From an uncultured Bacteroidales bacterium (GTDB lineage: Bacteria > Bacteroidota > Bacteroidia > Bacteroidales > WCHB1-69), in the NCBI GenBank assembly GCA_900319925.1, contig ONQE01000026.1:1-57924 (forward strand): a stretch of DNA of 57,924 nucleotides, in the 5' to 3' direction. Below, piece after piece: positions 131-14,339 of this stretch. Under the pieces are notes generated by a model. It made no database searches. It was not told the DNA's origin and saw only the letters and a list, made by a program, of their open reading frames with translations. The first letter of the stretch is position 1, and each line of letters starts with the position of its first letter. Made by a program: the position numbers and the translations under genes.

Positions 131-178
131 CAAATCACAAATCACAATTCACAATTCACAAATCACAAATCACAAATC
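131..178. repeat. Heptamer tandem repeat (CACAAAT/CACAATT)
   Basis: caaatcacaaatcacaattcacaattcacaaatcacaaatcacaaatc; it overlaps the last codons (VICDL*) of the adjacent gene. Confidence 0.85.
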
Positions 179-1355
179 CCACCCCCATCCGTACGCCCCA
201 AGCGCATCTTACATCGTTAATCGGGTTCAGGTTGTACAACATTCCGGTGGCTTCGGCGGAAAGCGCGAGATGGCGGATGTGGAACATCACGCCGAGCGAA
301 GCGGTGGGACCGTAATAGTTCCGCTTCGGGTAATAATGCCAGCCCTGGTCGCTCTCGAAATTGAGAGTGCGGTAGCTGTATCCGGCACCGATATGGAGGG
401 AGAACAGTTCAAGGGGGCGGACGACCAGCCCCAACTGGCCTTCGAGGTAGGTGGTCTTGGAAACGCCGGTGAGGACGTAATGCCCGTCCTCCTCGAAGGG
501 TGAGAAAGCCCCTCTGTAGTTGAAGTTGGTCATCGCGCTGAGGTACCAGCCGAAGCGTTTCACCGTGCCAATCTTGAACCCGAAGGACCATTGTGGCATG
601 GAGGTGTAGGCGGCATTAAGGGTGAAGAACGTGGTCAGTGGGTAGGTGTTGAGGAATGCCTTCCGTTTGGCCGCTCTTTCCTGTCGTTCGGCAGCCTTCT
701 CGGCGGCGAGGAGGGCCCGAATAGAGACCTTAGTGGTGTCGTTGGCGGTTGTTTGGGAGGGTGGGGGAGTGCTCCCCGCCATCCTGACGCTATCCTCCTT
801 GCTCCACACAGCTTCCTCATCATCATTGCCTAAGTCTAAGTAATCGTTATCAACCCCGCCATCGTAATCCATCGCCAGTCGGAATCCCGTGGAAGCATCG
901 TCGCCACCGAGGTAGAAGGAGGGGGTCACGTCCGGGAGGAAGCCCGTCTGGACGGCGCACGTCCATTCCGATTCCGTGGGGAGGCGGTAGTGCAGTTTCG
1001 TCTTCTGGTTGAGCCAGAAGATGAAAAGCTGCACCTCGTCGCGGGAGACATTGGTCACGGGCAGGTAGTCGTCGGCTTCTCCGTCCGGGTGGGTACCCAT
1101 GACCTCGTTCCAGAGCCGCCGCGTGACCTTGTGCTTGGCGATGTAGAATCCCTTGACGTGGGCAGAACTTGTTTGTGCGGTCGAAGCGTCGGTTGTGGGC
1201 GTGCAGGACGGCACAAAGCGCATCTCGACGAGAGGGTTGCTGTTGGGGGTGATGTCGTTTTGGGAATAGAGAAGAGGTCTAAAGACAATAGACAAAAGGC
1301 ACACTATCAACGTGATACAAAATGCCTGCCGTGATGCTGATAGGTTCTTTGCCAT
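156..1355 (-). CDS. Secreted protein with a shortened FGE-sulfatase (SUMF1-like) domain, an acidic linker and a C-terminal outer-membrane beta-barrel-like region
   Basis: FGE motifs FYIAKHKVTRRLWNEVMG, PVTNVS, YRLPTESEW and GFRLA; amphipathic strands ending WGVRMGVGF. Start re-called at MAKNLS (1355) because the ORF-track extension overlaps the neighbouring gene. Confidence 0.7.
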   Translation of the reverse strand: MAKNLSASRQAFCITLIVCLLSIVFRPLLYSQNDITPNSNPLVEMRFVPSCTPTTDASTAQTSSAHVKGFYIAKHKVTRRLWNEVMGTHPDGEADDYLPVTNVSRDEVQLFIFWLNQKTKLHYRLPTESEWTCAVQTGFLPDVTPSFYLGGDDASTGFRLAMDYDGGVDNDYLDLGNDDEEAVWSKEDSVRMAGSTPPPSQTTANDTTKVSIRALLAAEKAAERQERAAKRKAFLNTYPLTTFFTLNAAYTSMPQWSFGFKIGTVKRFGWYLSAMTNFNYRGAFSPFEEDGHYVLTGVSKTTYLEGQLGLVVRPLELFSLHIGAGYSYRTLNFESDQGWHYYPKRNYYGPTASLGVMFHIRHLALSAEATGMLYNLNPINDVRCAWGVRMGVGFVICDL

Positions 1356-1381
1356 AAAGTCCGAAATGTTTTCCAAACCCG

Positions 1382-2968
1382 CTATTCTTCCACCAACCAC
1401 GTCCCCACCGTCATCGTCTCCTGCTCGAAGGCCACGCCGACTTTGACGACCTTGCGGCCTTCGGTTTCGTAGGGCAGGGCGTAGTTCTTGCTGTTGATCT
1501 GGTCGAGGGCTTCCTGTGCCGTGCCGTTCGCCTTCAGTTCGAAGACGTAGGTGGTGTCGGGCATCTCCACCACGACGTCGGTGCGGCCGCCCGCGCACTT
1601 GACCTGGGTGCGCACATAGACGTTGAGCATCGAGAAGATCAGGTACAGCGACCATTCGTAAAACCCTTCGTAGTTCTTCACCTCCGCCAACTTCTTTTGG
1701 AAGCCTTCCACGTAAGGCAGTCCGGCGAAGTAGGCCTTCATCTCCTTCAGGGCAAGGTCTATGTCGTCCTTTTTCAGGGCTTGCCACAGTTTCAGGGCGA
1801 AGCCTTTCTGCACAATGGGCCCATCAATGCCTATGTAAGTGGGCAGCAACCCTCGTGTGAAGCCTAAGCGGACCTCGTTGTTGGGGATGCCGAGGGTGTA
1901 GATGTCCGACTCGCGATCGTAACCCTTGATGGTGATATAACCGCTTTGGTAGAGTAGCGGCAGGGCGGTTTCCATGGCTTCGGTGGGACAGTCGAAGGCG
2001 TCAGACGGCTCTTCCATGCGGTCCAGTGTGGTGATGTCGGTGCGGTAGTGCTGCATCTGTCGGATGAGGAAGGTCGGGGTGGCACTCTCGAACCAGTAGT
2101 TGGCGATATCCCTCTGGTTGAAACATTTCAGCAGACTGAACGGATTGTAAATGTCGGGAGACTTTTTGGCAAAGCGGTAACCGTCGTACTGCTTTTTCAG
2201 GTTGTCGTGCATCTCCTCGGGCGTGCATTCGTACTCTTCCGCGAGCATCGCGATGTCGGGGGCCATGTCGGTGACCAGTTCCTCTTCCGTGATGCCGCAG
2301 ATGGCCGCATATTTAGAATCCATAGAGATGTTGGTGAGGTTGTTGATGGTGGAGAAGATGCTCAGCTGCGAGAATTTGGTGATGCCGGTGATGAAGCAGA
2401 AGCGGATCATCGCCTCGTTCGCCTTCAGCTGGATGAAGAACTCCTGCATCACGTCGCGGAATCCGTCCAACAATTCCGGAAGGTGGAGCTTGTCCAACAG
2501 CGGTGCGTCGTATTCGTCGATGATGACGGCCACCTGCTTGCCGGTTTGATTGTAGGCGCGATGGATGAGCCCGCTGAACATTTTTCCAGGAGAAGTCTCC
2601 ATTTCGTCCTTCCCATATATTTCGCACAGAGGCCTCAAGATCCACATCAGGGTTTCTCGCAATGCCTCGATCGAACTTTCCGCTTTTGCTATGCTCAGGT
2701 CCACATGGATGACGGGGTGTTCTTCCCACTCCGTCTCCAGATCCATAATCTTGAGTCCTTCGAAAAGCTCTTTTTGTCCTTTGAAGTAGGAGTCCAGCGT
2801 GGTGGTTAGCAGGCTCTTGCCGAACCGGCGCGGCCGGCTGAGGAAGACGAAAGGACTCTCCTTGGTGATCTTCCAGACCAAGTCTGTCTTGTCGATATAG
2901 AGGTAGTTCTCTTTTCTCAGCCTTTCAAAGGTCTGGATTCCCACGGGGTATTTGCGGACGGTGTTCAT
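1382..2968 (-). CDS. AAA-ATPase-like + PD-(D/E)XK (PDDEXK_9-type) nuclease protein
   Basis: KYPVGIQTFERLR..YIDKT, SRPRRFGKSL (Walker A), IIDEYDAP (Walker B), GRTDVV..YVFELK..ALDQI..Y; start re-called at MNTVRK. Confidence 0.9.
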   Translation of the reverse strand: MNTVRKYPVGIQTFERLRKENYLYIDKTDLVWKITKESPFVFLSRPRRFGKSLLTTTLDSYFKGQKELFEGLKIMDLETEWEEHPVIHVDLSIAKAESSIEALRETLMWILRPLCEIYGKDEMETSPGKMFSGLIHRAYNQTGKQVAVIIDEYDAPLLDKLHLPELLDGFRDVMQEFFIQLKANEAMIRFCFITGITKFSQLSIFSTINNLTNISMDSKYAAICGITEEELVTDMAPDIAMLAEEYECTPEEMHDNLKKQYDGYRFAKKSPDIYNPFSLLKCFNQRDIANYWFESATPTFLIRQMQHYRTDITTLDRMEEPSDAFDCPTEAMETALPLLYQSGYITIKGYDRESDIYTLGIPNNEVRLGFTRGLLPTYIGIDGPIVQKGFALKLWQALKKDDIDLALKEMKAYFAGLPYVEGFQKKLAEVKNYEGFYEWSLYLIFSMLNVYVRTQVKCAGGRTDVVVEMPDTTYVFELKANGTAQEALDQINSKNYALPYETEGRKVVKVGVAFEQETMTVGTWLVEE

Positions 2969-3130
2969 GACGGACGGTTTTATCGCGGCAAAGGTACAAA
3001 TTTTTCGTTTACGGCTTCGCGTGGCGAAAATGTCGGGCGGTATCAACCTCCCACATTGCAAGTCTTTCGCAAGCCCTTCGCAAGTAGTAGCATCGCTCTT
3101 GCGCCCTGTCAGCGTCGTACCAGGCACGTC

Positions 3131-3245
3131 AGTTCTTCGATAGTTGTTCGATACTTCTTCGATACTTCTTCGATAGTTGTTCGATAGTTCTTCGTAATTT
3201 TACGGAGAACTATCGAACAACTCACGGAGAACTCACGGAGAACTC
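3131..3245. repeat. 11-bp tandem repeat array overlapping a ~23-bp-arm near-perfect palindrome
   Basis: A(G/C)TT(C/G)TTCGAT x5.8 (3131-3194); 3175-3197 pairs with 3200-3222; then (C)ACGGAGAACT x3. Confidence 0.85.
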
Positions 3246-3507
3246 GCGAGCCTGCGTGCTCTCTGATACGGCTCATATACGGTGCAAGGGCTTGGGAACG
3301 CCTGTATTGCCATCCACAAGAGCCATGTTGAGAATCAGTTTGGCCTTTGCGATTTCGATCTGTTCCTGTTTCTCGAAGTCGATGATCTCGTTCAGGAAAA
3401 GGGCTTTTGCCGCTTTGTTGAATGTTGATGTGTTTTTGATCAAAACAGTTCGACAACAGCCGTCACTGCGGCGGGAATGCAGAAGAACTGGTATGCCTTT
3501 TTTCTTA

Positions 3508-4053
3508 TCAACAGCGTAACGGATGGTTCACACTGTGCACAATATGCGGCAACATCTCGGTCAATGCCCGCTTGTCAGGATGATGGCCACATTTGAACGT
3601 GTAGGTCGGGAACAACATCGAAAGTTCGTCCTTGTATGAGAACAATTCATCGTTGGTGCCAAACAGGCATGTCACATCTTCAAACAGGTAGGAGGGCATT
3701 TGATCGTGGTATTCTCTTTGGAGATAATCCTCAAGGGGTTTGTATTTTGAACCGTCATAGCCGAGTTTGGGAAGTTCTACAGATGGCCTAAAACACACGT
3801 TTATCAGAATTCTCGGAACTGGGGGGTATAGGACAAGTGCGAAAAATGCGCCCAACGAGGAGGCGACGATTCCGTCAGGTGTTTCATCATTAATGAATTT
3901 CTCCAATTGTGCTAACCCGACTTTCGGTTCCTCCTGGCTATATTCAGTGGTGACAATCTCCATATCCGAAGAGCGCAACAGCTCGCCGAGTGTTCTGGCG
4001 GTGGTGGATTTTGGACTTGACCCGAAACCGTAAATGTAAAGAATCTTATTCAT
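3508..4053 (-). CDS. YqiA/YcfP (UPF0227) alpha/beta-hydrolase family esterase
   Basis: ILYIYGFGSSPKS, nucleophile elbow ASSLGAF, ILINVCFRP, FGTNDELF, C-terminal GHH. Confidence 0.85.
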   Translation of the reverse strand: MNKILYIYGFGSSPKSTTARTLGELLRSSDMEIVTTEYSQEEPKVGLAQLEKFINDETPDGIVASSLGAFFALVLYPPVPRILINVCFRPSVELPKLGYDGSKYKPLEDYLQREYHDQMPSYLFEDVTCLFGTNDELFSYKDELSMLFPTYTFKCGHHPDKRALTEMLPHIVHSVNHPLRC

Positions 4054-4092
4054 TTTCTTGTGTGAATAAAAATATAGAATTTGGTTCCTGTC

Positions 4093-4749
4093 TTAGTCGT
4101 TGAGATACTTTTTGAAATAGGAATAGTCGAAATTGTCATCCTCCCTTAACATAGAGGGGAAGAAAATGTTCATATAGTGGGCATACATTCTGTCATACCG
4201 TTCTTGATCTGCGTAGTTGCCGTCATCGTCTATTTCTCCCCACGGAGACCCATCCATATTGTCATTAATTTCATCAAACAAATATTCTTCGATGAAAAAC
4301 AGGTCAACCTCATCATGATGAAGAATGTCATTGTAGTACACTCCATCATCCTCATACGCTTTCGCCTTGCTTAGCGTTGGCATCCCGTCAATGCATGTGG
4401 CTTGATACCAGATGCTGACATTGCTACCAGACTCGGTGGCGGTTAGTAGCAATTGCATTAGGACATTCACGTTTTTGTCTTTCGCGAGTTTGATGCAGGT
4501 GCGCCGCACATCATCGATGGATCTCCGTGTGGGTATACCGGCAGGAAGTTTTTCAGAAATCTCAAAACTGACATCATTTTTGAGTTCTAATGTGAAATTT
4601 TCCGAATAGCGGATATCGTTGTATTGTAACTTCTTAATCCGATTTTCCAGTTCTGTTTTTATCAGAATCAATTCCTTCTGAGGAAGGGTTTTCATTCTGT
4701 CATCCAGAAAAATGATCTTCCAAAAGTCAACTATGTCATGTAAAACCAT
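4093..4749 (-). CDS. Hypothetical acidic protein; full-length paralog of the N-terminal domain of 5349-6536
   Basis: MVLHDIVDFWKIIFLDDRMK..IKTELENRIKKLQYNDIRY aligns with MALHDICDEWKILFLDDKMN..IKTELEERIKKLQYGDLRY; shared TATE.G, AK.YE, EYL.D and SPW motifs. Confidence 0.8.
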   Translation of the reverse strand: MVLHDIVDFWKIIFLDDRMKTLPQKELILIKTELENRIKKLQYNDIRYSENFTLELKNDVSFEISEKLPAGIPTRRSIDDVRRTCIKLAKDKNVNVLMQLLLTATESGSNVSIWYQATCIDGMPTLSKAKAYEDDGVYYNDILHHDEVDLFFIEEYLFDEINDNMDGSPWGEIDDDGNYADQERYDRMYAHYMNIFFPSMLREDDNFDYSYFKKYLND

Positions 4750-4797
4750 AATTGTTAGTGAGATTACCTGTACCTCTCAAGGTGTTGATGCGACCAA

Positions 4798-5175
4798 CTA
4801 TGAAATGACAATATCAGTGAAATACTCATAATGTAAATCCATACAATCGTTGTAGTAAACGAGTTGTCGGGGAACATGTGTCTTGAACGGACCATGTTTC
4901 ATACAATACGCTGCTCTTGTGATACGCTCTCGCAAAGCGATGCCATTTGGATCCTTTTCCAAATAATCAACAAAAGAGTCTGCGTCAGTATAATTGAGAG
5001 ACCTTAAGATTTTGATCTCTTCTTTCTTCATCTGCTTCTCAATATTGCTGATAAAAGTGTTTTTTGTACCGTTGTCGCTAATATCCGCATCGTAGAAAAC
5101 CTCGTCTTCGGTTTCCACGATGAATGCATCTTTAAGTTTATCTATCAATTTATACTTTCCAACCATAATATTCAA
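4798..5175 (-). CDS. Hypothetical protein (125 aa; start may be a few codons in)
   Basis: AT-rich ORF, co-oriented with the cluster, protein-like composition; no family recognised. Confidence 0.65.
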   Translation of the reverse strand: MNIMVGKYKLIDKLKDAFIVETEDEVFYDADISDNGTKNTFISNIEKQMKKEEIKILRSLNYTDADSFVDYLEKDPNGIALRERITRAAYCMKHGPFKTHVPRQLVYYNDCMDLHYEYFTDIVIS

Positions 5176-5286
5176 AGGACTTCTATGTTAAACAATTCAA
5201 TCGTTTCATTATGCCTTTGCGAAGTCCGTTAGACAAAAACACGATGATGACGATACACTGACAGTACTTTTTTTCTATGTCGGCTG

Positions 5287-5329
5287 ATTTTGAAAAAGTG
5301 GGGCTTTCGAGACCCCACTTTTTCAAAAT
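5287..5329. terminator. 17-bp perfect inverted repeat, terminator-like, downstream of the glycosylase fusion
   Basis: attttgaaaaagtgggg-N9-ccccactttttcaaaat. Confidence 0.6.
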
Positions 5330-5348
5330 GACAAACGGTTTAGTTGTC

Positions 5349-6536
5349 CTATTTTTTGAAGCCAAGCGCTTCCTTCCATCCTTCCAATTTTTTCTCGAAG
5401 GACATCGGATAGGCGTTGCTTGTGGAGGGAGCGGTCGCACACTTCTTTTCAATCTTGAAATGCTCTTCAAAATCCTTGAATGTTTTCTTGCCGTTGAACA
5501 CGAGAAGATCAATGGTTTGATGCTCATTCAGGAACCCTTCGAGGTTATTGTAAACCACATTCTTCATATTCTTGTCCGCAGATCCCTCGCGCTCGCACTG
5601 ATGCGCAAGATCCCACACGGCCACCTTGTTGGCTTTCAGGCATTCCTCCTTCTCATTGTAGTTTTGGAACTTTTTGCCCTTATTGTAGATTTGTTCCATG
5701 AATTTCCAGAAGCTGTTGGTGTGGGAAGCATAATATTCGCCGGTTTCGAGGGATTTGTTTCCGGGCATAGTGCCGAGAATGAGAATCTTAGGCTCATCGC
5801 CAACCAATGGATTCAGGCCTGTTATTTCATTACCGATGATTATTTCCGTCTTTTCCTCCGTCACTTCTTCCGTATATTTCTTGGGAATATATTGCTGGAA
5901 AGAAGCAGACAGTTCGTCTAACCACAAATCATAGAAGAATGCCTTTGCTGTGTAAGCAAAACACTTGTTATACAGCTTCTCTGCATCTTCGGTCAACTCA
6001 TTGTCTTCATCCTTCTCCCATGGGGATTCGTCAAAATTGTCCATTAACGTGTCCCACAAGTATTCTTGGATTTCCTCCTCATTAGTCTCATTTTCAAAAT
6101 CTATATCTGTAAAGAATTCACCGTCAATATTTTCGTACACTTTGGCATCCGCTTCTGATGTTTGTCCGAAAAGGACGGCTGCTTGCATCCAAATAATCAA
6201 TTCTTTACCATACTCGGTAGCCGTATTGAAGATTTGCACCATAACATTCAAATGATTTTCGAGTGCATAATTTTGGCACAACTCCAAAATATCCTTTTGC
6301 GCTTTTGGGAAAGGAGAACCTTCGGGGATGGAATATTGCTCACCCCAAAGGTGCTCATCTGTGTCATAATAACTTAATTTAAAATCATCCGCATAACGAA
6401 GATCACCATATTGGAGCTTTTTGATTCGCTCTTCCAATTCTGTTTTTATCCTGAAACGCCTCTCTTTGGGGATTATATTCATTTTGTCGTCCAAAAAAAG
6501 GATTTTCCATTCATCACAAATATCATGTAAAGCCAT
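5349..6536 (-). CDS. Fusion of an unknown acidic N-terminal domain and a C-terminal UDG-superfamily DNA-deoxyinosine (hypoxanthine) glycosylase
   Basis: C-terminal ~160 aa has PKILILGTMPGNKSLETGEYYASHTNSFW, VAVWD, CEREGSADKNM, VFNGKK and APSTSNAY, matching family-6 HDG/MUG-like motifs. Confidence 0.85.
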   Translation of the reverse strand: MALHDICDEWKILFLDDKMNIIPKERRFRIKTELEERIKKLQYGDLRYADDFKLSYYDTDEHLWGEQYSIPEGSPFPKAQKDILELCQNYALENHLNVMVQIFNTATEYGKELIIWMQAAVLFGQTSEADAKVYENIDGEFFTDIDFENETNEEEIQEYLWDTLMDNFDESPWEKDEDNELTEDAEKLYNKCFAYTAKAFFYDLWLDELSASFQQYIPKKYTEEVTEEKTEIIIGNEITGLNPLVGDEPKILILGTMPGNKSLETGEYYASHTNSFWKFMEQIYNKGKKFQNYNEKEECLKANKVAVWDLAHQCEREGSADKNMKNVVYNNLEGFLNEHQTIDLLVFNGKKTFKDFEEHFKIEKKCATAPSTSNAYPMSFEKKLEGWKEALGFKK

Positions 6537-6643
6537 ATCTTACGCGATTACCTATACATCGCAAGGTTCTAAATAATAGGATCCATATATGAACTATAGT
6601 GATCACCAGCAGGAACCCTTTAACCGGTGCCACAGTTTTTGCT

Positions 6644-6871
6644 CTATTCTTCTGTCAATTCAATGTTTGTTGAAGAGCGGATGAGGATAGACTGCTCTGC
6701 AGGAATGATGCAGACAGGAAGCAGGTGTCCGTTTGTGCGCTCACAGATTCGATATAGGTTATGCTTCAGCACCACAACCATCTCTGTTTTTGAATCCGTT
6801 GTTCCGAAGAAGCGTGTGTATTGCCTGTCCGTCACCTTCACTCCGTCTGCAAATGTTTCTATGATGACCAT
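6644..6871 (-). CDS. Small hypothetical protein (75 aa)
   Basis: Co-oriented ATG-start ORF in the AT-rich cluster. Confidence 0.5.
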   Translation of the reverse strand: MVIIETFADGVKVTDRQYTRFFGTTDSKTEMVVVLKHNLYRICERTNGHLLPVCIIPAEQSILIRSSTNIELTEE

Positions 6872-6971
6872 CCGAATAAATACTGTTTATTGGTATTAGA
6901 CTGTTATTACATATTATGGCATAAATATACGCCACAACAGAGTGTTTTTAACAAACCCAAAAAACAGGAGA

Positions 6972-7172
6972 CTATTTGTCTTTGTTGATAAAATCGATGA
7001 GCTTGTTTCCGAACTGACGGACAGTCCACTCCTTGTCGTATTCGAAGCCGACCTTTGCCGCTATTTCACGAAGAGCCGCCGTAGAGTTGTCATAAATGCG
7101 ATAGACCACGATGCTTCCGCTTTCTTCCTTTTGGATGATGTATTCACCCGAAATTGCTGATTTTGCTGCCAT
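6972..7172 (-). CDS. Small hypothetical protein (66 aa), first gene after the operator-bearing promoter
   Basis: MAAKSAISGEYIIQKEESGSIVVYRIYDNSTAALREIAAKVGFEYDKEWTVRQFGNKLIDFINKDK, preceded by an AT-rich translation-initiation region. Confidence 0.75.
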   Translation of the reverse strand: MAAKSAISGEYIIQKEESGSIVVYRIYDNSTAALREIAAKVGFEYDKEWTVRQFGNKLIDFINKDK

Positions 7173-7193
7173 AACTGTATGTTTTAAATTATT

Positions 7194-7283
7194 AAGAACG
7201 CCGTGAAATCCCTCTTCGGTGATTTCACAGCGCAAAAATAATATGTTAACCGATTGGCGGCTTGGTCCGAATTGGTCCGAATT
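7194..7283 (-). promoter_or_regulatory. Operator/promoter/leader-hairpin block, copy 1
   Basis: GGTCCGAATTGGTCCGAA at 7264-7281; -7 box TATTTTTG (minus strand, 7233-7240); hairpin GTGAAATC..GATTTCAC; 86/90 nt identical to 11751-11840. Confidence 0.8.
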
Positions 7284-7286
7284 TAC

Positions 7287-7379
7287 TCACTCCCGCTCCT
7301 GCCGCACCTCTGTCAACCCGCCTTTGTTGCCGACCACGAAGAGCGTCGGGACGTTGTTGCCGTGCACGAAGTTGTCGAG
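7287..7379 (-). pseudogene. Duplicated 3' end (30 codons + stop) of the regulator gene 13422-13994
   Basis: 87/93 nt identical to 13422-13514; reads LDNFVHGNNVPTLFVVGNKGGLTEVRQERE* versus LDNFVHGNNAPTLFVVGNKGGLTEVRRERE*. Confidence 0.9.
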
Positions 7380-7522
7380 ATTATCCCTTAGTAACCTGAA
7401 CTTTTGTAGAGAATACATAAAACTGTCCTATAACACGTTCCTCATGTTTTATATATTTTTCTTCATCATCTATAGGGAAAAGCGTAAATGCCACCACACC
7501 ATTCTTTTTGTGTAAGGTAGGT

Positions 7523-10500
7523 TTAATCCTTGAGGCAGCGAACGGAATAGCCCTGGTTCTTGCTGTTGGTAATGCTGGTTACGTAGGCGCTATTGTAGAA
7601 GAGGTGGCGGCGGTACGCGTCAAAGCCACTGGACTCGGTAGAACTCCAAAAGACGGCGGTGTAGCCGAAATTGCAAGAACCATTACCATTGATGTAGAAG
7701 CCCGCAGGCAACGCCCCGAAACATGTGGCGTTGTTGCTGGACGGCATGTTGCCCACATCACATTGGTTTTCACTGTAAGTCCATCCTGTGGTTGAGGCTA
7801 ACGCCTTGGCGACAAAGTTGTTGTTGTTGCCGCACAGATAGTTGCTCTGGCTACTGACATGGTTTTCCAGTTCACTCCACTCCGCGTCGCTTGGAACGTG
7901 CCACCCGTTGGGACATATACCCAGCACGCCGGAGGGAGAGGCATTGCTGGAAGAAGCCCCATGCATTACCGCAGCCCAGTTGTAAAGATAACCGTGTGTG
8001 GAAATAGTGCTGCTGCTGTTTGCTGGATAATAATAGAAATAATAGGGGTAGGCTGTTGAGGAGGAACTACCTGAAGATAGGGAAGTGCCATCCGCGTAAT
8101 GCGTAGTGCGGAGATTCTCCTGCATCCAGCACTGGTTTCCGATTTGCACCGTATTATAAACGTTTCCGTCATAGTCAGTGACAGTAGGTGTGTTAGGGCA
8201 AGAAACTTGTTGATTTGTCATGAAACTCACCTGGTTGCCATACGCCGTGCCCGCGTTGTTTGTGGCGTAGGCCCGCACATAGTAGGTGGTGTTTTGAGAC
8301 AAATCGGTAACACTGCTGGTAAAGGTGCCGGTACCGTTGCCGTCGGTGGTATGGTTGTTGCTTACCGTAGGGTTGGGCGAAGTACTCCAACACACCCCGC
8401 GGGCGGTCACAGATACACCGCCGTCAGCGGTCACGTTGCCGCCACAAGTGGCGGAGTTGGTTGTGATGTTGCTGGGCGCAGCGGTGAATACGGTGGGAAA
8501 GGAGACAAAAGTGGTGTCTCCACCACCTCCCGTCTCGTCTTTTATGCAACGGACGGAATAGCATTGTCGTATGCTGCCGAAACTCAATTGCCAGTAGATA
8601 TTGTTGGAGTAAAGGCTGAAGTCATAGAGGTATACTCCATACGAATCATCAGAATGTACGGTAGCACTCCAAAAGTGGGTGTCGCCACCGACAGCGTTGT
8701 AGCCGTTGTAGCTATAGTAGCCAGCGGGAAGGGCTGAAAAGCCCGTGCCGTTGTTGGCAGAAAGATCGTTGCCTATCACGCAGTAGCCATTCTCGGTGAT
8801 CCATCCCACCGTGTCCGCCAATGCCTTGACGATACTGTTTTCGTAACCGCATAAATGAATGCTTTGGCTACTCACAGAATCGGCCATTTGCTCCCACTCC
8901 ATTTTACTAGGCAAATGCCACCCAACGGGGCAGATGCCCCTGCGGTGGCCAGTGAACGTCACCGACATCTGGTTAGCGGGATCTGTATTCACACTTGTCT
9001 CCCCAAACATTGTATTGAACGTGTCCACCGCCGCATACCAGTTGTAGAGCAATCCGTATTTCATCGGGGCATACGTGGCGGATTCGTTGTTGTACCAGCG
9101 TGCCTGCTTACCCGTGTACGTACATACCGAATTGACATCCGGAATAAGGTAAGTTCCAGTACTCGGCGAAGTTGTGGTACGCAAATTTTCCCTCATCCAG
9201 CACTGGTTTCCGATCAGCACGGTGTTATAGACGTTGCCCTCATGGTCAGTCACGGTTGGAACACCAGGACAAGGAAGACCACCCTGTCCAGTGGTGCCAG
9301 AAGTGGTGGTAAAAGGCCATTGTTCCCCGTATGACGTACCCAGACTGTTGGTGGCATACGCCCGCACGTAATAGGTTGTGTTAGCGGCAAGCCCCGTGAT
9401 ATTGCTTGTAAAACCGCCCGTGCCACTGCCATCCGTGGTATGACTATCATTAAGGGTAGGATTATGCGATGTACTCCAGCACACTCCACGGGAAAAGACG
9501 GTATCGTTACCATCAGCTGTTACAGTTCCGCCGCAGATGGCAGAAACAGAAGAAATGCCAGTAGCAGGATTAGTGATGACTTGTGGCAAAGTCTGGTTGC
9601 TGCCAACACCGAGAACACAACGGACTGAAAGCCCTGAATTCTTATAACTCGAGTTACCACTTATGTATGTGTTGTCGGCAGACAAGTACTGGGAGGATGC
9701 ATAATCAACAGAAGTACCATTGGAAGTCCAAAAATAAGCGTATTGGCCTGCCCCATAGAGGCCTGCCCCTTGGAATCCCAAACTGTACCACTCACCTGCC
9801 GGAACGGCCGAAAAACCGGTAGCATTGTTTGTGGACGGGCTGTTGCCTATAGCGCAACTGGTGGAACTATTTTGCCATCCCGTTGTAGAAGCCAAAGCCT
9901 TAGCGATAGAATTATCACATTGGTACTGGCTTTGACTGCCCACATAAGAACTCAATTGCCACCATTCATCAAGGCTGGGAACATGCCACCCAGTAGGGCA
10001 GATACCTTGAATACCACTTGGATTTGCATTAGAGGAACAAGCATTATGCATCACAGCAGGCCAATTGTACAGATAACCATAACCTAGCTGTGCCTGATAC
10101 GAAAGGATGTAATAGTACGGCAGAATATAGCTGCCTTCACCACTCATGTTGCCTACTGGTATGGACACACCATCGGCATAATGCGTGGTTCGCAGGTTCT
10201 CTTTCATCCAACATTGGTCACCAATCTGCACGGTATTGTAAGTGTTTCCGTCAATGTCGGTGAGGGTTGCGGCATTTGGGCAAGGCTGCCCATCCATAGA
10301 CAAGGTCGTAAAACTCACCACATTTCCATACGCTGTCCCTACACTATTGGTGGCATACGCCCGCACATAATAGACTGTGTTTGCAGCCAACCCTGAGATG
10401 CTGCTGCCAAAACTGCCGGTACCGCTGCCGTTTGAAGTGTGGCTGTCATTGAGAGTTGGGTTCTGTGAAGTACTCCAACATACACCTCGTGCCGTGACAG

Positions 10501-11602
10501 GAGCAGCCACAACACTGTTCACATAGTTGTTCCCGCAATAGGCTGAGTTTCCTGTAACGTTGCTCACCGTACCCGTTGTTACCTCTGGTAAAGTGGCTGA
10601 TGTTGTGAAACTCACCTCGTTGCCATACGATGTGCCCACACTGTTTCGGGCGTATGCCCGCACATAATAGGTTCTGCCGGCATAAAGTCCAGTCAAACTG
10701 CTGGTGAAAGCACCCGTTCCGCTGCCATTCGTAGTATGGTCACCGCTAATAGTTGGGTTATGCGACAAACTCCAGCAAACACCCCTTTCCGTAACGGCCG
10801 CACCGCCGTCACTGGTTACGTTGCCGCCGCAAGTGGCTGCGTTAGACGTGATGCCACTTACTGTATTGGTGGAGACTGTTGGCATGTAGTATATTTGCGT
10901 TTCCGCAAACTGCAATGTGAATAATTGCGACGATCCCTGCGCTTGTGTGATGCGCTGGCTCTCCGCTTCCGTGTTGTTAATGAAGGCATAACCCACATAT
11001 TCCATTTGGTCGCCGAAATTGAAAGGATTGTTAGTGCTGGATTTCAACACGACGGTAATGGTCTGTACCATGCCAAGATAGTCTAATGTGTTGCTACCAC
11101 CTCCGCCGTTGCAAATCATCTTGATGGAGGATGTCTTCCCATTCTGGCGGGCGGTCATCACGTAAGTACCCGCGGTGGACAAGGAAATGCGGAATTGATG
11201 ATTTCCCGGTTGTAGAGATACAAGATTTTGTGTCTCTATGATGCGTCCATTCATATCCTTGATGTCCAAATCAACCTTGCCTTCATCCACTGTTGTCAGG
11301 CTCACCTCAGTAGTGCCACTGAAGGGGTTTGGATTGTTCTGCGACAGAACGAATCCGCCGTCCAAAGTGTGGTCGTCAATGTCCGTGCCGTTCTGCATAG
11401 TCAGCACCGTGTCGGGCCAGTAAATGGTCTCCTGCCAGCTCTTGGTCAGATTGGTTATGATAACCCTGTTAAGCTGCACATAATGGTTTGCAGCGTCCTT
11501 TGCGGTGAAAGTGAGGGTGACGGTCTGGGCGGCCAATCCGAAGGATGCAGCCGCTAAAATAAGAAATAAAAGCCCTTTTGGGCAGATATTCTTTTCTGTC
11601 AT
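7523..11602 (-). CDS. Secreted 1359-aa surface protein: signal peptide, N-proximal T9SS-CTD/FlgD-like domain, 4 FN3-like repeats, 3 Fib_succ_major (FISUMP) domains
   Basis: LAAQ signal cleavage; LSQNNPNPF..DMNGRII..AGTYVM; repeats of CGGNVT.DGG..V..RGVCWS..YYVRAYA.N..GT.YG; three D.DGN.YNTV.IG.QCWM.ENLRTT..G.LYNW.A..ICP.GWH.PS..FW..SVRC domains. Confidence 0.9.
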   Translation of the reverse strand: MTEKNICPKGLLFLILAAASFGLAAQTVTLTFTAKDAANHYVQLNRVIITNLTKSWQETIYWPDTVLTMQNGTDIDDHTLDGGFVLSQNNPNPFSGTTEVSLTTVDEGKVDLDIKDMNGRIIETQNLVSLQPGNHQFRISLSTAGTYVMTARQNGKTSSIKMICNGGGGSNTLDYLGMVQTITVVLKSSTNNPFNFGDQMEYVGYAFINNTEAESQRITQAQGSSQLFTLQFAETQIYYMPTVSTNTVSGITSNAATCGGNVTSDGGAAVTERGVCWSLSHNPTISGDHTTNGSGTGAFTSSLTGLYAGRTYYVRAYARNSVGTSYGNEVSFTTSATLPEVTTGTVSNVTGNSAYCGNNYVNSVVAAPVTARGVCWSTSQNPTLNDSHTSNGSGTGSFGSSISGLAANTVYYVRAYATNSVGTAYGNVVSFTTLSMDGQPCPNAATLTDIDGNTYNTVQIGDQCWMKENLRTTHYADGVSIPVGNMSGEGSYILPYYYILSYQAQLGYGYLYNWPAVMHNACSSNANPSGIQGICPTGWHVPSLDEWWQLSSYVGSQSQYQCDNSIAKALASTTGWQNSSTSCAIGNSPSTNNATGFSAVPAGEWYSLGFQGAGLYGAGQYAYFWTSNGTSVDYASSQYLSADNTYISGNSSYKNSGLSVRCVLGVGSNQTLPQVITNPATGISSVSAICGGTVTADGNDTVFSRGVCWSTSHNPTLNDSHTTDGSGTGGFTSNITGLAANTTYYVRAYATNSLGTSYGEQWPFTTTSGTTGQGGLPCPGVPTVTDHEGNVYNTVLIGNQCWMRENLRTTTSPSTGTYLIPDVNSVCTYTGKQARWYNNESATYAPMKYGLLYNWYAAVDTFNTMFGETSVNTDPANQMSVTFTGHRRGICPVGWHLPSKMEWEQMADSVSSQSIHLCGYENSIVKALADTVGWITENGYCVIGNDLSANNGTGFSALPAGYYSYNGYNAVGGDTHFWSATVHSDDSYGVYLYDFSLYSNNIYWQLSFGSIRQCYSVRCIKDETGGGGDTTFVSFPTVFTAAPSNITTNSATCGGNVTADGGVSVTARGVCWSTSPNPTVSNNHTTDGNGTGTFTSSVTDLSQNTTYYVRAYATNNAGTAYGNQVSFMTNQQVSCPNTPTVTDYDGNVYNTVQIGNQCWMQENLRTTHYADGTSLSSGSSSSTAYPYYFYYYPANSSSTISTHGYLYNWAAVMHGASSSNASPSGVLGICPNGWHVPSDAEWSELENHVSSQSNYLCGNNNNFVAKALASTTGWTYSENQCDVGNMPSSNNATCFGALPAGFYINGNGSCNFGYTAVFWSSTESSGFDAYRRHLFYNSAYVTSITNSKNQGYSVRCLKD
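11212..11239. repeat. GTAG-type REP-like 28-bp palindrome inside coding sequence (encodes IETQNLVSLQ)
   Basis: gtagagatacaagattttgtgtctctat; its minus strand matches the intergenic copy at 46476-46503 at 20/28 positions. Confidence 0.65.
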
Positions 11603-11661
11603 ATTGGTTTATTTTGTTGATGAATTATTCTTTTGTTATTAATTGAAATTGTTGTTTTCAG

Positions 11662-11743
11662 CTGCTTAGGTGTGCAACCGCTTTCCTCAAAGAAGGCGCG
11701 GCCTGTCTTTGTCGTCAAAGAGGTTCTAGCAAAACCCAAGCAG
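11662..11743 (-). ncRNA. Candidate structured cis-regulatory leader RNA (multi-stem junction)
   Basis: Minus strand: CUGCUUGGG/CCUAAGCAG closing stem enclosing CCU-CUUUG(ACGA)CAAAG-AC-AGG and CCGC..GCGG hairpins; lies in the 5' leader of the 1359-aa gene. Confidence 0.45.
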
Positions 11744-11750
11744 AAAAAAA

Positions 11751-11840
11751 AAGAACGCCGTGAAATCCCTCTTCGGTGATTTCACAGCGCAAAAATAATA
11801 TCTAAACCGATTGGTGGTTTGGTCCGAATTGGTCCGAATT
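11751..11840 (-). promoter_or_regulatory. Operator/promoter/leader-hairpin block, copy 2
   Basis: GGTCCGAATTGGTCCGAA at 11821-11838; -7 box at 11790-11797; hairpin followed on the minus strand by GTTC-T9. Confidence 0.8.
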
Positions 11841-11850
11841 AAGGGTGCTA

Positions 11851-13293
11851 TCAGTCGAAAAGGTCGTCTAAGGTGACGCTGCATTGGATGACGGAGCTGT
11901 TCTTGCCCGGGACAATTCCGAACGTGGAGATCAGGGTGGTGAGGATGGTGGCGCGCGTTTTCACAGATTCCCTGAAGACGGCCACCTTTTGGCGCAACTT
12001 GTCCGCGTAGTCCTTGGTGATAAGAAACGGCTCGTTGGCGCAGAATTTGATCTCGCACAGGTTGATGGCCCTGTCGCCGCGTTCCAACACCAGGTCTATT
12101 TGAGCCCCGGCGTCTTGTGCATCCCGGTCCCACCAGGAGAACGCATTGCAAAGGACTCCGGAAATTCCCAAGCCGCGCTTGATTTGCTCCACATGGGTCA
12201 AACATATCAGCTCAAAAGTGAGACCGTTCCAGACCTGTGTCGCAGGGGTGTTGATGGTGTGAGACCAAAACCTCGGGTCCAGTCCTTCCTTCCCTTTGAT
12301 GAACTTCAAGTAAAACAAGGTGTAAAAATCGCACAGCCTGTATTTTATGTCTCTTTTCTTGTCCATGGAATAGTATGAGGAGATGAAGAAGCAGTTCTTC
12401 AGATCCCTGAGATAACGGCTGATGTCACCGCCGCATTTCTTGCCTAACAATGCGCATATTTCGGTCCGCGAATACCCTGCCTTTTTGCCGGCAAGAATTT
12501 CGATGATGTGCCTGTAGGTTTCCGGCTTTTTGAATAAGGAACTAAACAGCCGGTCGTATTCACCGGACAAGGGGGCACCCTGGCTGAAGAACAGCTCGTC
12601 AATGTTTTGCGCGAGACTTTTCCCTCGTTTCAGTTGTCGCAGATAGTAAGGGATGCCCCCCATCACCATATAGCAACGCAATATCTCGATTCTGTCGTAA
12701 GCGAAGCCCCGGCTGCTGAGATACGACTCCGTTTCAGACAGGGTGAAAGGGGATATCAACATCGGATGAGTGATGCGGTTGTACAAGCCCCCCGTGTTGT
12801 TGATGACGTTGTCGATGATGTATGAGGTGGCGGAACCGCAAACGATGAACATCAGATTGGATCTGTGAGCTGCCCAGTCGTTCCAGAAATGCTCCAATGC
12901 GGTGATGAATCCGGAAGAGGGAGTGTCCATCCATGGCAGCTCGTCAATGAAAACCACCTGCCGCTCTTGGTTGTCCGCATTGGTCAACAGGTCTTGGAGG
13001 TTGTTGAAGGCCTCAAACCAATCCGAAGGTTTCTCGTATTCCCGAATCCCATATTGATTCAGAGCCGTTTGGAAGTTTTCCAACTGCCGTTCCTTCAGGT
13101 TGATGTTGTCGGATTCGATTGGGGAGAGTCCTGTCACGCAAAAATCGAACCGATTTTGGAAAAAATGGTGGACCAAAAAGGTTTTCCCCACGCGTCGCCT
13201 GCCGTAAATTACGATGAATTCTGCCTCGCGAGAATCGTAATATTCTTGTAAATCAGTAAGTTCCTTCTTTCTTCCGATGATTTCTGCTGTCAT
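11851..13293 (-). CDS. AAA family ATPase (ATPase_2/archaeal ATPase type) with C-terminal PD-(D/E)XK-like domain
   Basis: IIGRKKEL, YGRRRVGKT (Walker A), VFIDELPW, IVCGSA, GGIPYYL, C-terminal AQIDLVLER..INLCEIKF. Confidence 0.88.
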   Translation of the reverse strand: MTAEIIGRKKELTDLQEYYDSREAEFIVIYGRRRVGKTFLVHHFFQNRFDFCVTGLSPIESDNINLKERQLENFQTALNQYGIREYEKPSDWFEAFNNLQDLLTNADNQERQVVFIDELPWMDTPSSGFITALEHFWNDWAAHRSNLMFIVCGSATSYIIDNVINNTGGLYNRITHPMLISPFTLSETESYLSSRGFAYDRIEILRCYMVMGGIPYYLRQLKRGKSLAQNIDELFFSQGAPLSGEYDRLFSSLFKKPETYRHIIEILAGKKAGYSRTEICALLGKKCGGDISRYLRDLKNCFFISSYYSMDKKRDIKYRLCDFYTLFYLKFIKGKEGLDPRFWSHTINTPATQVWNGLTFELICLTHVEQIKRGLGISGVLCNAFSWWDRDAQDAGAQIDLVLERGDRAINLCEIKFCANEPFLITKDYADKLRQKVAVFRESVKTRATILTTLISTFGIVPGKNSSVIQCSVTLDDLFD

Positions 13294-13421
13294 AATGCCC
13301 CTGTTTTATTTCTCCGCGAAGATACAAAATTTTTGTTCGCGGAGGAGTTTTAGGGGGTCGTTTTCCTCCGCGAACTGATTTTTTTTCGGTTCGTGGAGAT
13401 TTTGGCGGGGAGTGCTCGCCG

Positions 13422-13994
13422 TCACTCCCGCTCCCGCCGCACCTCCGTCAGCCCGCCTTTGTTGCCGACCACGAAGAGGGTGGGGGCGTTGTTGCCGTGC
13501 ACGAAGTTGTCGAGGTAGAGCGGCTCCCCGAGGATGAAGCAGGAACACGAAAAGGAATCGCCGGGCTTGAGCTTGGAGTTCTCGCTCTCCACCACCATGA
13601 AGCTCCCTTCGCCGAGATGGCGCAGCAGCACACGGCGGTCGGGCGACCAGGCGATGCGCACAAAACCCTCCTGCGGGATCTCGTCGGGATGCAGGACGCG
13701 GCCCAACACCGGGTTCGAGGATTCGCCCGCGCGGTCGTGGTTGGCCAGGAAATCGTCCCAGTCGTGAAAACCCACGCAACGGGCGAGGACCGAGAGGGTG
13801 GAGTAGCGGGTGGTGTCGTAACCCTCCACATAGCCCCAGATGCGCTTGAGGGTGGTCACCCCCAAGGTCTCCTTGCAGCGCTCCTGGATCACGCCGGTGA
13901 GGAACTGGAAGTCGGCGGGAGTCTTCATCTTGCGCGACACGGACTCCTCCACCATTTCGCGGAGTTGCAGGATTTCGGTTTCGTTGGGCTTCAT
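13422..13994 (-). CDS. Uncharacterised putative DNA-binding regulator (N-terminal HTH-like region, C-terminal beta-rich domain)
   Basis: Helical N-terminus TPADFQFL..LGVTTLKRIWGY..YSTLSVLARCVGFHDWDDF resembles an XRE-like HTH; its own promoter carries the repeated motif. The regulator function is inferred. Confidence 0.65.
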   Translation of the reverse strand: MKPNETEILQLREMVEESVSRKMKTPADFQFLTGVIQERCKETLGVTTLKRIWGYVEGYDTTRYSTLSVLARCVGFHDWDDFLANHDRAGESSNPVLGRVLHPDEIPQEGFVRIAWSPDRRVLLRHLGEGSFMVVESENSKLKPGDSFSCSCFILGEPLYLDNFVHGNNAPTLFVVGNKGGLTEVRRERE

Positions 13995-14013
13995 ACAGGA
14001 TTTTTTAGACGCG

Positions 14014-14061
14014 CAAAATTATAAAATTCAAACAACGGGAGACGGTCCGAATTGGTCCGAA
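14014..14061 (-). promoter_or_regulatory. Regulator promoter with operator copy 3
   Basis: -7 box TAATTTTG (14014-14021) and exact GGTCCGAATTGGTCCGAA (14044-14061); flanks are otherwise unrelated to copies 1 and 2. Confidence 0.75.
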
Positions 14062-14182: not shown

Positions 14183-14339
14183 AGTGAATGGTGAATTGTG
14201 ATTAGTGTGATTAGTGAATTGTGATTGGTGAATTGTGATTGGTGAATAGTGATTGGTGAATTGTGATTGGTGAATTGTGATTGGTGAATTGTGATTGGTG
14301 AATTGTGATTGGTGAATTGTGAGTGAATTGTGATTAGTG
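14183..14339. repeat. Tandem repeat, 14-bp unit GTGAATTGTGATTG (paired heptamers), about 11 units
   Basis: Directly visible; no unique spacers. Confidence 0.95.

Follow-up and report, generated by a model that had tools for sequence, protein, structure and literature searches.

Islands inserted by an integrase carry repeats of the target gene's 3' end (attL/attR) on both sides of the acquired DNA and leave the target gene intact, and integrons stack exchangeable units, cassettes that mostly lack a promoter, downstream of a fixed platform. Variable-gene and defence hotspots hold diverse inserts between conserved core genes. For the effector-immunity arrays of type VI secretion systems (T6SS), a route through homology-facilitated illegitimate recombination is proposed and linked to the displacement of rhs C-termini (PMC5361080). 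Here we describe a locus that shares features with each of these systems. It lies in a stretch of 57,924 nucleotides (nt), hereafter the window, from an uncultured Bacteroidales bacterium of a rumen setting (GCA_900319925.1, contig ONQE01000026.1, positions 1-57,924), and is built around reg, the gene of a putative DNA-binding regulator. Downstream of the intact reg the window contains a second, truncated copy of this gene joined to a promoter block, and we hold with moderate confidence that this composite is explained by displacement of the reg 3' end through homology-anchored recombination.

The truncated reg copy and its counterparts in relatives

The relevant genes (reg, the ATPase and FISUMP genes, the remnant, the stub and the 66-aa gene) lie on the minus strand throughout. 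Read 5' to 3' on that strand, the features follow one another in the order given here, in which aa stands for amino acids, D5R and D5L for the right and left promoter blocks, and the last line joins the two features preceding the 66-aa gene:

13422-13994, minus strand: reg, intact, 190 aa; putative DNA-binding regulator from a Bacteroidales family that is large and uncharacterised
13311-13399, minus strand: paired palindromes in the interval from the reg stop to the ATPase start, formed side by side by four copies of a ~10-nt word in alternating orientation
11851-13293, minus strand: ATPase gene, 480 aa, Pfam ATPase_2 (PF01637, 3.6e-19), between the reg stop and D5R
11751-11840, minus strand: D5R promoter block, with direct repeat 11821-11838, 23 nt, TATTTTTG -7 box 11790-11797, ~15-bp stem-loop and T-run
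11689-11746, minus strand: 54-58-nt element that stands between D5R and the FISUMP gene and has no counterpart in the left copy; folds into a small hairpin and a second, terminator-like one with a T-run
7523-11602, minus strand: FISUMP protein gene, 1359 aa, secreted, three Fib_succ_major (FISUMP) domains, ~1-kb internal repeats
7399-7506, minus strand: remnant of a 168-aa gene, its last ~50 codons with a 42-nt internal deletion, the first ~118 codons gone (tblastn 60% over 50 aa, and nucleotide alignment)
7287-7379, minus strand: reg stub, what is left of a second reg copy, ~30 codons from codon 160 to the stop, without promoter and without the first 159 codons
7194-7283, minus strand: D5L promoter block, with direct repeat 7264-7281, -7 box ~7233-7240 and stem-loop, no T-run
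6972-7172, minus strand: 66-aa gene, conserved hypothetical, its start codon 60 nt past the D5L -7 box
7194-7379: composite of reg stub and D5L, 186 bases, ~6 kb downstream of the intact reg

Both halves of the composite repeat DNA near the intact gene, as the sequence-only reading of this stretch had reported. Positions 7194-7283 match 11751-11840 at 86/90 (96% identity; chance ~7e-33), and 7287-7379 match 13422-13514 at 87/93 (94%; ~3e-31), the chance expectation being binomial with 0.28 per base over all position pairs of the window. The spacing described by that reading was also recovered: the halves are 3 nt apart in the left copy and 1581 nt apart in the right copy (11841-13421), where the ATPase ORF (open reading frame) lies between them. 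The count of synonymous changes held as well, with four of the six differences in the coding repeat synonymous and two nonsynonymous (pS 0.178, pN 0.030; binomial P = 0.038 against neutrality); divergence mainly at synonymous sites fits a once-functional allele.

The relatives show what the composite is. When positions 7160-7400 were aligned with locus L009 and with the first of the two reg copies of L007, we observed a base-for-base match that begins exactly at codon 160, and none before it. In both of these relatives an intact reg stop is followed by the promoter block within 3-50 nt, so that the unit of regulator, operator/promoter and cargo postulated earlier exists there in intact form. 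Collinearity of the composite with the relatives, from the reg 3' end through the stop into the promoter block, makes it a 5'-truncated reg copy with its native promoter and no att site; and since the match runs from codon 160 only, the left copy retains the ancestral layout, cut off at 7379/7380. That break is an illegitimate or a deletion junction. Judged from the alignment, D5L is the native partner of the stub and the putative driver of the 66-aa gene. It is in the right copy that DNA has been inserted, for there reg and D5R are separated by the palindromes and the ATPase gene; L001 shares this state (96.3% over 2374 nt).

The ~110 nt that precede the stub are the decayed 3' end of the 168-aa gene. 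In L008 this gene is intact (9437-9943), with a FISUMP giant on one side and, on the other, the promoter of a full-length reg, which indicates that the succession of FISUMP gene, 168-aa gene, promoter and reg was present in a donor at least, and perhaps in the ancestor of the window too. As the stub adjoins this decayed gene, the left copy is a truncated gene and not a duplicated attachment site, and the attL/attR-like recombination proposed by the sequence-only reading is not supported. Base composition also differs along the locus: GC is 63.5% in the reg window 13601-14000, like that of the core genes at 16-19 kb, and 36-52% in the cargo.

Stubs of this kind recur. The comparison set for stubs and motifs comprised 80 loci and the window (81 sources), and the search combined BLAST with a sensitive 20-mer scan, the last 75-150 nt of each reg being the query. 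Same-strand downstream 3' stubs were found in the window, L006, L007, L008 and L079, against one opposite-strand downstream match, one non-trivial same-strand upstream match and no opposite-strand upstream match in the controls. Their lengths are ~21, ~45, 52-70, 93 and ~390 nt, and the positions and sequences of the junctions differ in all five loci, with no shared core. Those outside the window are:

L006: ~21-nt repeat of the reg end, flanking the same DUF559 insert as in L008, 0.9 kb
L007: ~45 nt; 85-nt insert between full gene and stub
L008: 52-70 nt; ~1040-nt insert with a reversed DUF559 gene between full gene and stub
L079: ~390 nt, 5.9 kb from reg; carries 270 nt of shared downstream DNA

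In L079, a member of a distant group, the stub matches the working 3' end of a sister genome, L054, at 188/200 and the locus's own full gene at 163/200; hence the alternative 3' allele is functional elsewhere. The stub tails of L007 and L008 resemble the working tail of L003-L005, and the full genes of these two loci bear a different, insert-borne tail. The earlier proposal that the fragment is an allele from a related strain therefore fits L079, while the window's stub ties between the window's own reg and that of L001 (87/93 each; 75/93 to the reg of L008).

Gene content after reg is variable, the point that the sequence-only reading had wished to see checked in relatives. We classified the first downstream gene in loci L001-L023; the contig of L002 stops within reg, which leaves 22 loci and 23 reg copies. 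ORFs of the comparison loci came from a crude greedy rule, and wrong-strand calls (e.g., L018 7862-9052) were corrected by tblastn. The 23 copies are followed by 12 classes of gene:

Ser/Thr kinase: 7 copies, five convergent and abutting the reg stop, two same-strand
FGE-sulfatase-like gene: 4 copies, followed by a second FGE-like gene and a FISUMP giant
DUF559: 2 copies
PBECR1: 2 copies
ATPase_2: 1 copy
PDDEXK_2: 1 copy
AAA-ATPase_like/PDDEXK_9: 1 copy
PAD_porph: 1 copy
66-aa-like genes: 1 copy
HTH_3 gene heading a cytosine methylase/HATPase/Z1 cluster: 1 copy
No family match: 2 copies, two separate classes

Filled and empty states can be compared directly in two pairs, the difference falling in both exactly at the 3' end of reg. 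In the first, reg and the kinase are separated by 2.6 kb in L010 and by no such DNA in L017, within collinear flanks that are 85-92% identical; likewise, L020 has 5.1 kb and L015 none. Empty arrangements consist of reg followed by the promoter block (L009) or directly by the kinase (L013, L014, L015, L017, L023). The kinase forms a convergent flank in 10 of the 22 loci, and since the gap then lies between two convergent 3' ends, insertions disturb no promoter; this gap may be a tolerated landing place. Of the cargo hotspot with attL/attR ends that had been suggested, the variable cargo and the filled and empty sites stand, whereas the att mechanism does not, given stubs of ~21-390 nt with no core and no recombinase found in the window.

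Moreover, reg itself is mosaic. Aligned with L001, the window shows 35 mismatches over the 241 nt of 14061-13821 (promoter and 5' end) and 52 over the next 2132 nt, through the ATPase gene and D5R (segment identities 90.6, 97.2, 97.5 and 97.8%), which places a crossover inside reg, near 13821-13976. Segment identities to L018 run 83.9, 68.9, 73.3 and 84.9% along reg, and incongruence of this kind was seen for many pairs, indicating that recombination inside reg is common. In the pair L010 and L017, reg is only 72% identical, below its flanks; reg thus travels with the cargo.

Proposed history and its alternatives

Displacement would have begun with DNA of a closely related strain pairing homologously inside the resident reg, while the far end of the incoming DNA would have been joined illegitimately at codon 160 of the resident copy. 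The event would have installed a new reg 3' part, the PDC-S27-type ATPase gene, D5R, the FISUMP gene and the decayed 168-aa gene, and would have pushed the resident reg 3' end, with D5L and its cargo, 6 kb downstream as an orphan. Both this order of events and the route, homology at one end and an illegitimate join at the other, are inferences. In keeping with them, the divergence of the stub from the full copy (6/93) is of the same order as that of the presumed resident 5' part from L001 (17/180). Because conserved reg sequence supplies the homology, different cargos would accumulate after reg, each keeping a promoter with the same direct-repeat motif.

Several points weigh against this history. 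Stubs are rare (5 of 81 sources), and the L001 mosaic could have arisen in the lineage of L001 instead. The comparison loci are all metagenome-assembled genomes of different species, the linkage of both copies in one genome is that of the assembly, and DNA uptake by these bacteria is a presumption of the route. The upstream side of reg likewise varies between these species, so that the term hotspot has its main support in the two filled-versus-empty pairs. In L007, two complete reg copies lie on one strand at a distance of 5.7 kb; in the window, the 168-aa remnant adjoins the stub, and L008 has this gene before a complete reg with promoter. An equally simple explanation of the window is therefore a second unit, once full, that deletion later shortened. 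On that account, which we regard as possible rather than probable, a complete unit of promoter, reg, D5L and 66-aa gene downstream of the FISUMP and 168-aa genes lost its promoter and the first 159 codons, and the stub is a decaying paralogue. It draws on the gene order of L008 (FISUMP gene, intact 168-aa gene, promoter, full reg), on the tandem copies of L007, and on the 168-aa gene itself, whose reduction to ~50 codons with a further 42-nt deletion, set beside the intact order in L008, indicates that several deletions hit this spot. Random decay, however, should leave fragments of both kinds, and what remains in all five stub loci is a 3' end lying downstream of a full copy; 5' fragments did not turn up in the search, which used only the last 75-150 nt of reg as query. 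Furthermore, the stub is no closer to the L008 reg than to that of the window or of L001, and deletion still requires an earlier event that made the tandem units.

Two further explanations appear much weaker. Under the first, a recombinase encoded elsewhere used an att site at the 3' end of reg to insert cargo, which would make the 93-nt repeats the attL and attR of a site-specific island. The 93-nt direct repeats do flank a 6.04-kb segment (7380-13421), empty sites exist in relatives, a gene of the Phage_integrase family lies ~3 kb upstream of reg in L001, and in L006 a ~21-nt repeat surrounds the 0.9-kb DUF559 insert. Yet the repeats range from ~21 to ~390 nt with no common junction core, the left junction falls in a decayed gene, and no integrase, resolvase or transposase family was found by Pfam (cut-offs E <= 0.01 and E <= 1e-5) in 40 of the 41 non-overlapping window ORFs of >=70 aa, the one left out being a plus-strand ORF at 7219-7515 that overlies the repeat itself; this agrees with the earlier reading, which had seen no integrase or transposase. 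The DNA of 7194-14061 and the reg protein matched nothing in plasmid or phage collections, and a plasmid or phage origin was rejected on these grounds. For want of a recombinase among these ORFs and because of the varying junctions we also rejected the att-site reading, and we consider a site-specific island very improbable. The assembly itself must be considered as well, since an artefact could have joined two strains at the repeats, the two copies belonging to separate genomes. The window resembles metagenome-assembled genomes, many reg homologues lie on short contigs, and the contig of L002 ends inside the reg 3' end, so that assemblers do break here. Nevertheless, the copies differ at 4 and 6 positions and were not collapsed, and independent assemblies from other studies show analogous stubs. 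The unique 4-kb FISUMP gene connects D5R to the stub, and 7379/7380 joins unique DNA to codon 160; a truncated reg after the FISUMP gene thus exists in some genome. An artefact is therefore improbable in our view.

The reg family, its promoter motif and the cargo genes

Members of the reg family are nearly all stand-alone proteins of ~190 aa from Bacteroidales. The window's reg has 154 close homologues and 2915 clusters (50% identity) at E <= 0.001, and at least 565 of the 600 matched stretches listed from species-representative genomes encode a relative. It matched nothing in Pfam, NCBIfam or PADLOC, nor in the PDB by profile or by single sequence, and an Atlas search returned 'hypothetical' clusters only. 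No Pfam or NCBIfam domain is shared at E <= 5 across 22 members, hhalign against the HTH_3 protein of L011 gave a probability of 0.4%, and no recognisable DNA-binding domain was found in reg by sequence profile; by eye, and in our own reading only, the N-terminal half looks like a helix-turn-helix. Longer fused forms were not found among 729 candidates, none of which scored, and a scan of eight longer relatives gave one CutC domain, likely a read-through, and nothing useful in the others. In L016 (~10346) the codon of an invariant tryptophan, reg codon 116, reads TGA; this copy looks inactivated, or the base is a sequencing error.

The feature that ties reg to its neighbours is an 18-nt direct repeat, which stands upstream of reg as well as in D5R and D5L:

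14044-14061, minus strand: putative reg operator/promoter, TTCGGACC, 2 nt, TTCGGACC, 22 nt upstream of the TAATTTTG -7 box at 14014-14021

We counted exactly three copies of the repeat in the window, where 0.14 would be expected and where no shuffle out of 100 gave as many. Each copy is on the strand of reg, at 22-23 nt upstream of a -7 box of the Bacteroidetes type, for which the consensus is TAnnTTTG. Thus every promoter block bears the motif that also precedes reg, as expected from the earlier claim that each cargo has its own operator-like site. The same arrangement of repeat and -7 box precedes reg or heads downstream genes in L001, L003, L004, L005, L006, L007, L017 and L021. In distant homologues the half-site drifts (GGACC, GAACC, GGACT), while the 10-nt period and the position are kept. 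A relaxed form of the pattern was found at -130 to -30 of 49 of 81 reg copies (0.014 expected per window), and repeat plus -7 box 99 times in the 80 loci and the window, compared with 7 times in one shuffle. The genes behind the extra sites mostly encode small, secreted or surface proteins, among them DUF6591 lipoproteins, BspA-type leucine-rich repeat proteins, OmpA, WG repeats, GIY-YIG_2 and family-less proteins of 56 and 120 aa. That an operator-like site is conserved in the promoter of reg as well as in those nearby provides good, though indirect, evidence of a local regulon with autoregulation; reg may bind the direct repeat, the two forming a candidate regulator-operator pair.

Blocks homologous to D5R were found in L001, L003, L004, L006, L007, L009, L010 and L017; the stem of the hairpin is perfect and, in a set of three sequences, shows one compensatory pair. 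Next to D5R, the 54-58-nt element is 94-100% identical in L001 (12251-12303), L003 (11823-11876), L004 (11849-11902), L006 (6386-6439), L007 (5029-5082) and L010 (10932-10975), with 34 nt of it in L011, across genomes whose reg proteins are only 76-96% identical. In L003, L004, L006 and L010, ~190 nt with another -7-like box separate it from the promoter block. It may be a small RNA or an attenuator. The palindromes next to reg, which could also pair with each other, likewise follow reg directly in L001, L006 and L008; as they occur once in the window and only at the equivalent place in these loci, a genome-wide repeat family was rejected. An Rfam search of the promoter block, the 54-58-nt element and the palindromes gave one sub-threshold hit at chance level (21.2 bits versus a gathering cut-off of 45, E 0.34).

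At 14184-14339, ~120 nt upstream of the promoter motif of reg, a 14-nt unit composed of two 7-nt sub-units is repeated in tandem (9.8 copies). Heptamer runs resembling it are found in the reg 5' leader of L006, L007 and L008 and near reg in L005, L021, L066 and L071.

Among the cargo, the ATPase matches the PADLOC candidate single-gene defence system PDC-S27 over its full length (E 3.6e-191, residues 2-479 on profile positions 2-473/474), and L001 holds a 97.7% identical copy. PMC13356809 reports PDC-S27 as abundant in rumen genomes and, in the excerpted text, discusses it solely as a candidate (PDC) system. The FISUMP gene is the cargo driven by the putative D5R promoter. Its product matches a type IX secretion C-terminal sorting domain near the N-terminus (residues 91-163), as does the 2597-aa FISUMP relative of L008 (residues 88-160). 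The 66-aa protein has 21 homologous clusters of 71-97% identity. Further along the minus strand we noted:

3109-6900, minus strand: low-GC block (36-43% GC), with a 395-aa protein, a UPF0227 protein and three ORFs without family match
1382-3127, minus strand: AAA-ATPase_like/PDDEXK_9 gene (Pfam)
~156-1370, minus strand: FGE-sulfatase-like gene, downstream of the AAA-ATPase_like/PDDEXK_9 gene

The region 3500-7200 has 36-43% GC in a genome of about 55-65%, and the low-GC block is probably a separate acquisition; the C-terminal 150 aa of its 395-aa protein match DNA-deoxyinosine glycosylase. ORFs 156-1787 and 1382-3127 overlap by ~400 nt in different frames. Homology of the former, a 543-aa ORF, to relatives begins at about residue 145, which puts its true start probably near 1370. 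The place directly after reg is taken in relatives by the FGE-like gene and in L016 by an AAA-ATPase-like gene. A trio of FGE-sulfatase-like gene, second FGE-sulfatase-like gene and FISUMP giant recurs after reg in L006, L007, L008, L018, L019 and L020. Both domain families turn up in literature on diversity-generating retroelements, as far as its excerpts go; no reverse transcriptase was seen near the trio in the loci studied here. The window has a second FISUMP giant at 23694-30224 (2176 aa, with a glycine-rich domain), and no direct-repeat promoter motif stands in front of it.

Comparison with described systems

As in integrase islands, direct repeats of the reg 3' end flank acquired DNA and reg is intact; unlike in them, no integrase was found in the window, repeat length and junctions vary, and the distal copy starts at an arbitrary codon beside a decayed gene. 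With integron arrays the locus shares stacked, exchangeable cargo downstream of a fixed platform, here reg, whereas no IntI was found in the window, the units carry their own promoters, and no attC-type hairpins were identified, no attC model having been run. We rejected the integron reading, as no Phage_integrase was found in the window, the junctions vary and the hairpin is a perfect stem. Like defence hotspots, the locus has conserved flanks (reg and, in part of the loci, the convergent kinase) around diverse inserts that include defence-like genes; it differs from them in that the flank gene is partly duplicated and that reg is mosaic and, between L010 and L017, more divergent than its flanks.

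A broader and rather doubtful interpretation is that reg and the promoter block form an integrase-free cassette platform, in which the reg 3' end and a portable block of operator, promoter and stem-loop serve as homology handles for cargo exchange and regulon growth. If this were true, captured units (defence candidates, nucleases, surface proteins) would arrive wired to the same regulator, and the local regulon would grow by recombination; the cargo nucleases (GIY-YIG_2, DUF559, PBECR1, PD-(D/E)XK) might then promote exchange by cutting empty sites. The locus provides a worked example of how uncultured rumen Bacteroidales may achieve turnover of genes for defence-like and surface proteins with no dedicated recombinase at work. 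Moreover, the unannotated reg family together with the repeat motif could mark variable islands in metagenome-assembled genomes, and may also help to explain assembly breaks there.

The closest likeness is to the displacement arrays of rhs, contact-dependent inhibition (CDI) and T6SS loci. As the excerpted literature describes them, the conserved 5' part of a gene provides the anchoring homology, a new 3' end arrives together with cargo on the incoming DNA, and the old 3' end and the gene downstream of it are shifted down as an orphan, with no dedicated recombinase. The window has the corresponding layout of full gene, cargo, 5'-truncated same-strand 3' copy and older cargo, as do L006, L007, L008 and L079, and the mosaic reg agrees with a breakpoint inside the anchor gene. 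The differences lie in the parts: the anchor here is a small cytoplasmic putative regulator and no toxin, the cargo consists of a defence-candidate ATPase and surface or small proteins instead of toxin tips and immunity genes, and the displaced units, one orphan in the window, keep their own promoter with the shared motif. The principle is thus known from rhs, CDI and T6SS loci, and what is gained is no new mechanism but a new setting, with a putative regulator as anchor, cargo units that each have a promoter with the shared motif, and a candidate regulator-operator pair.

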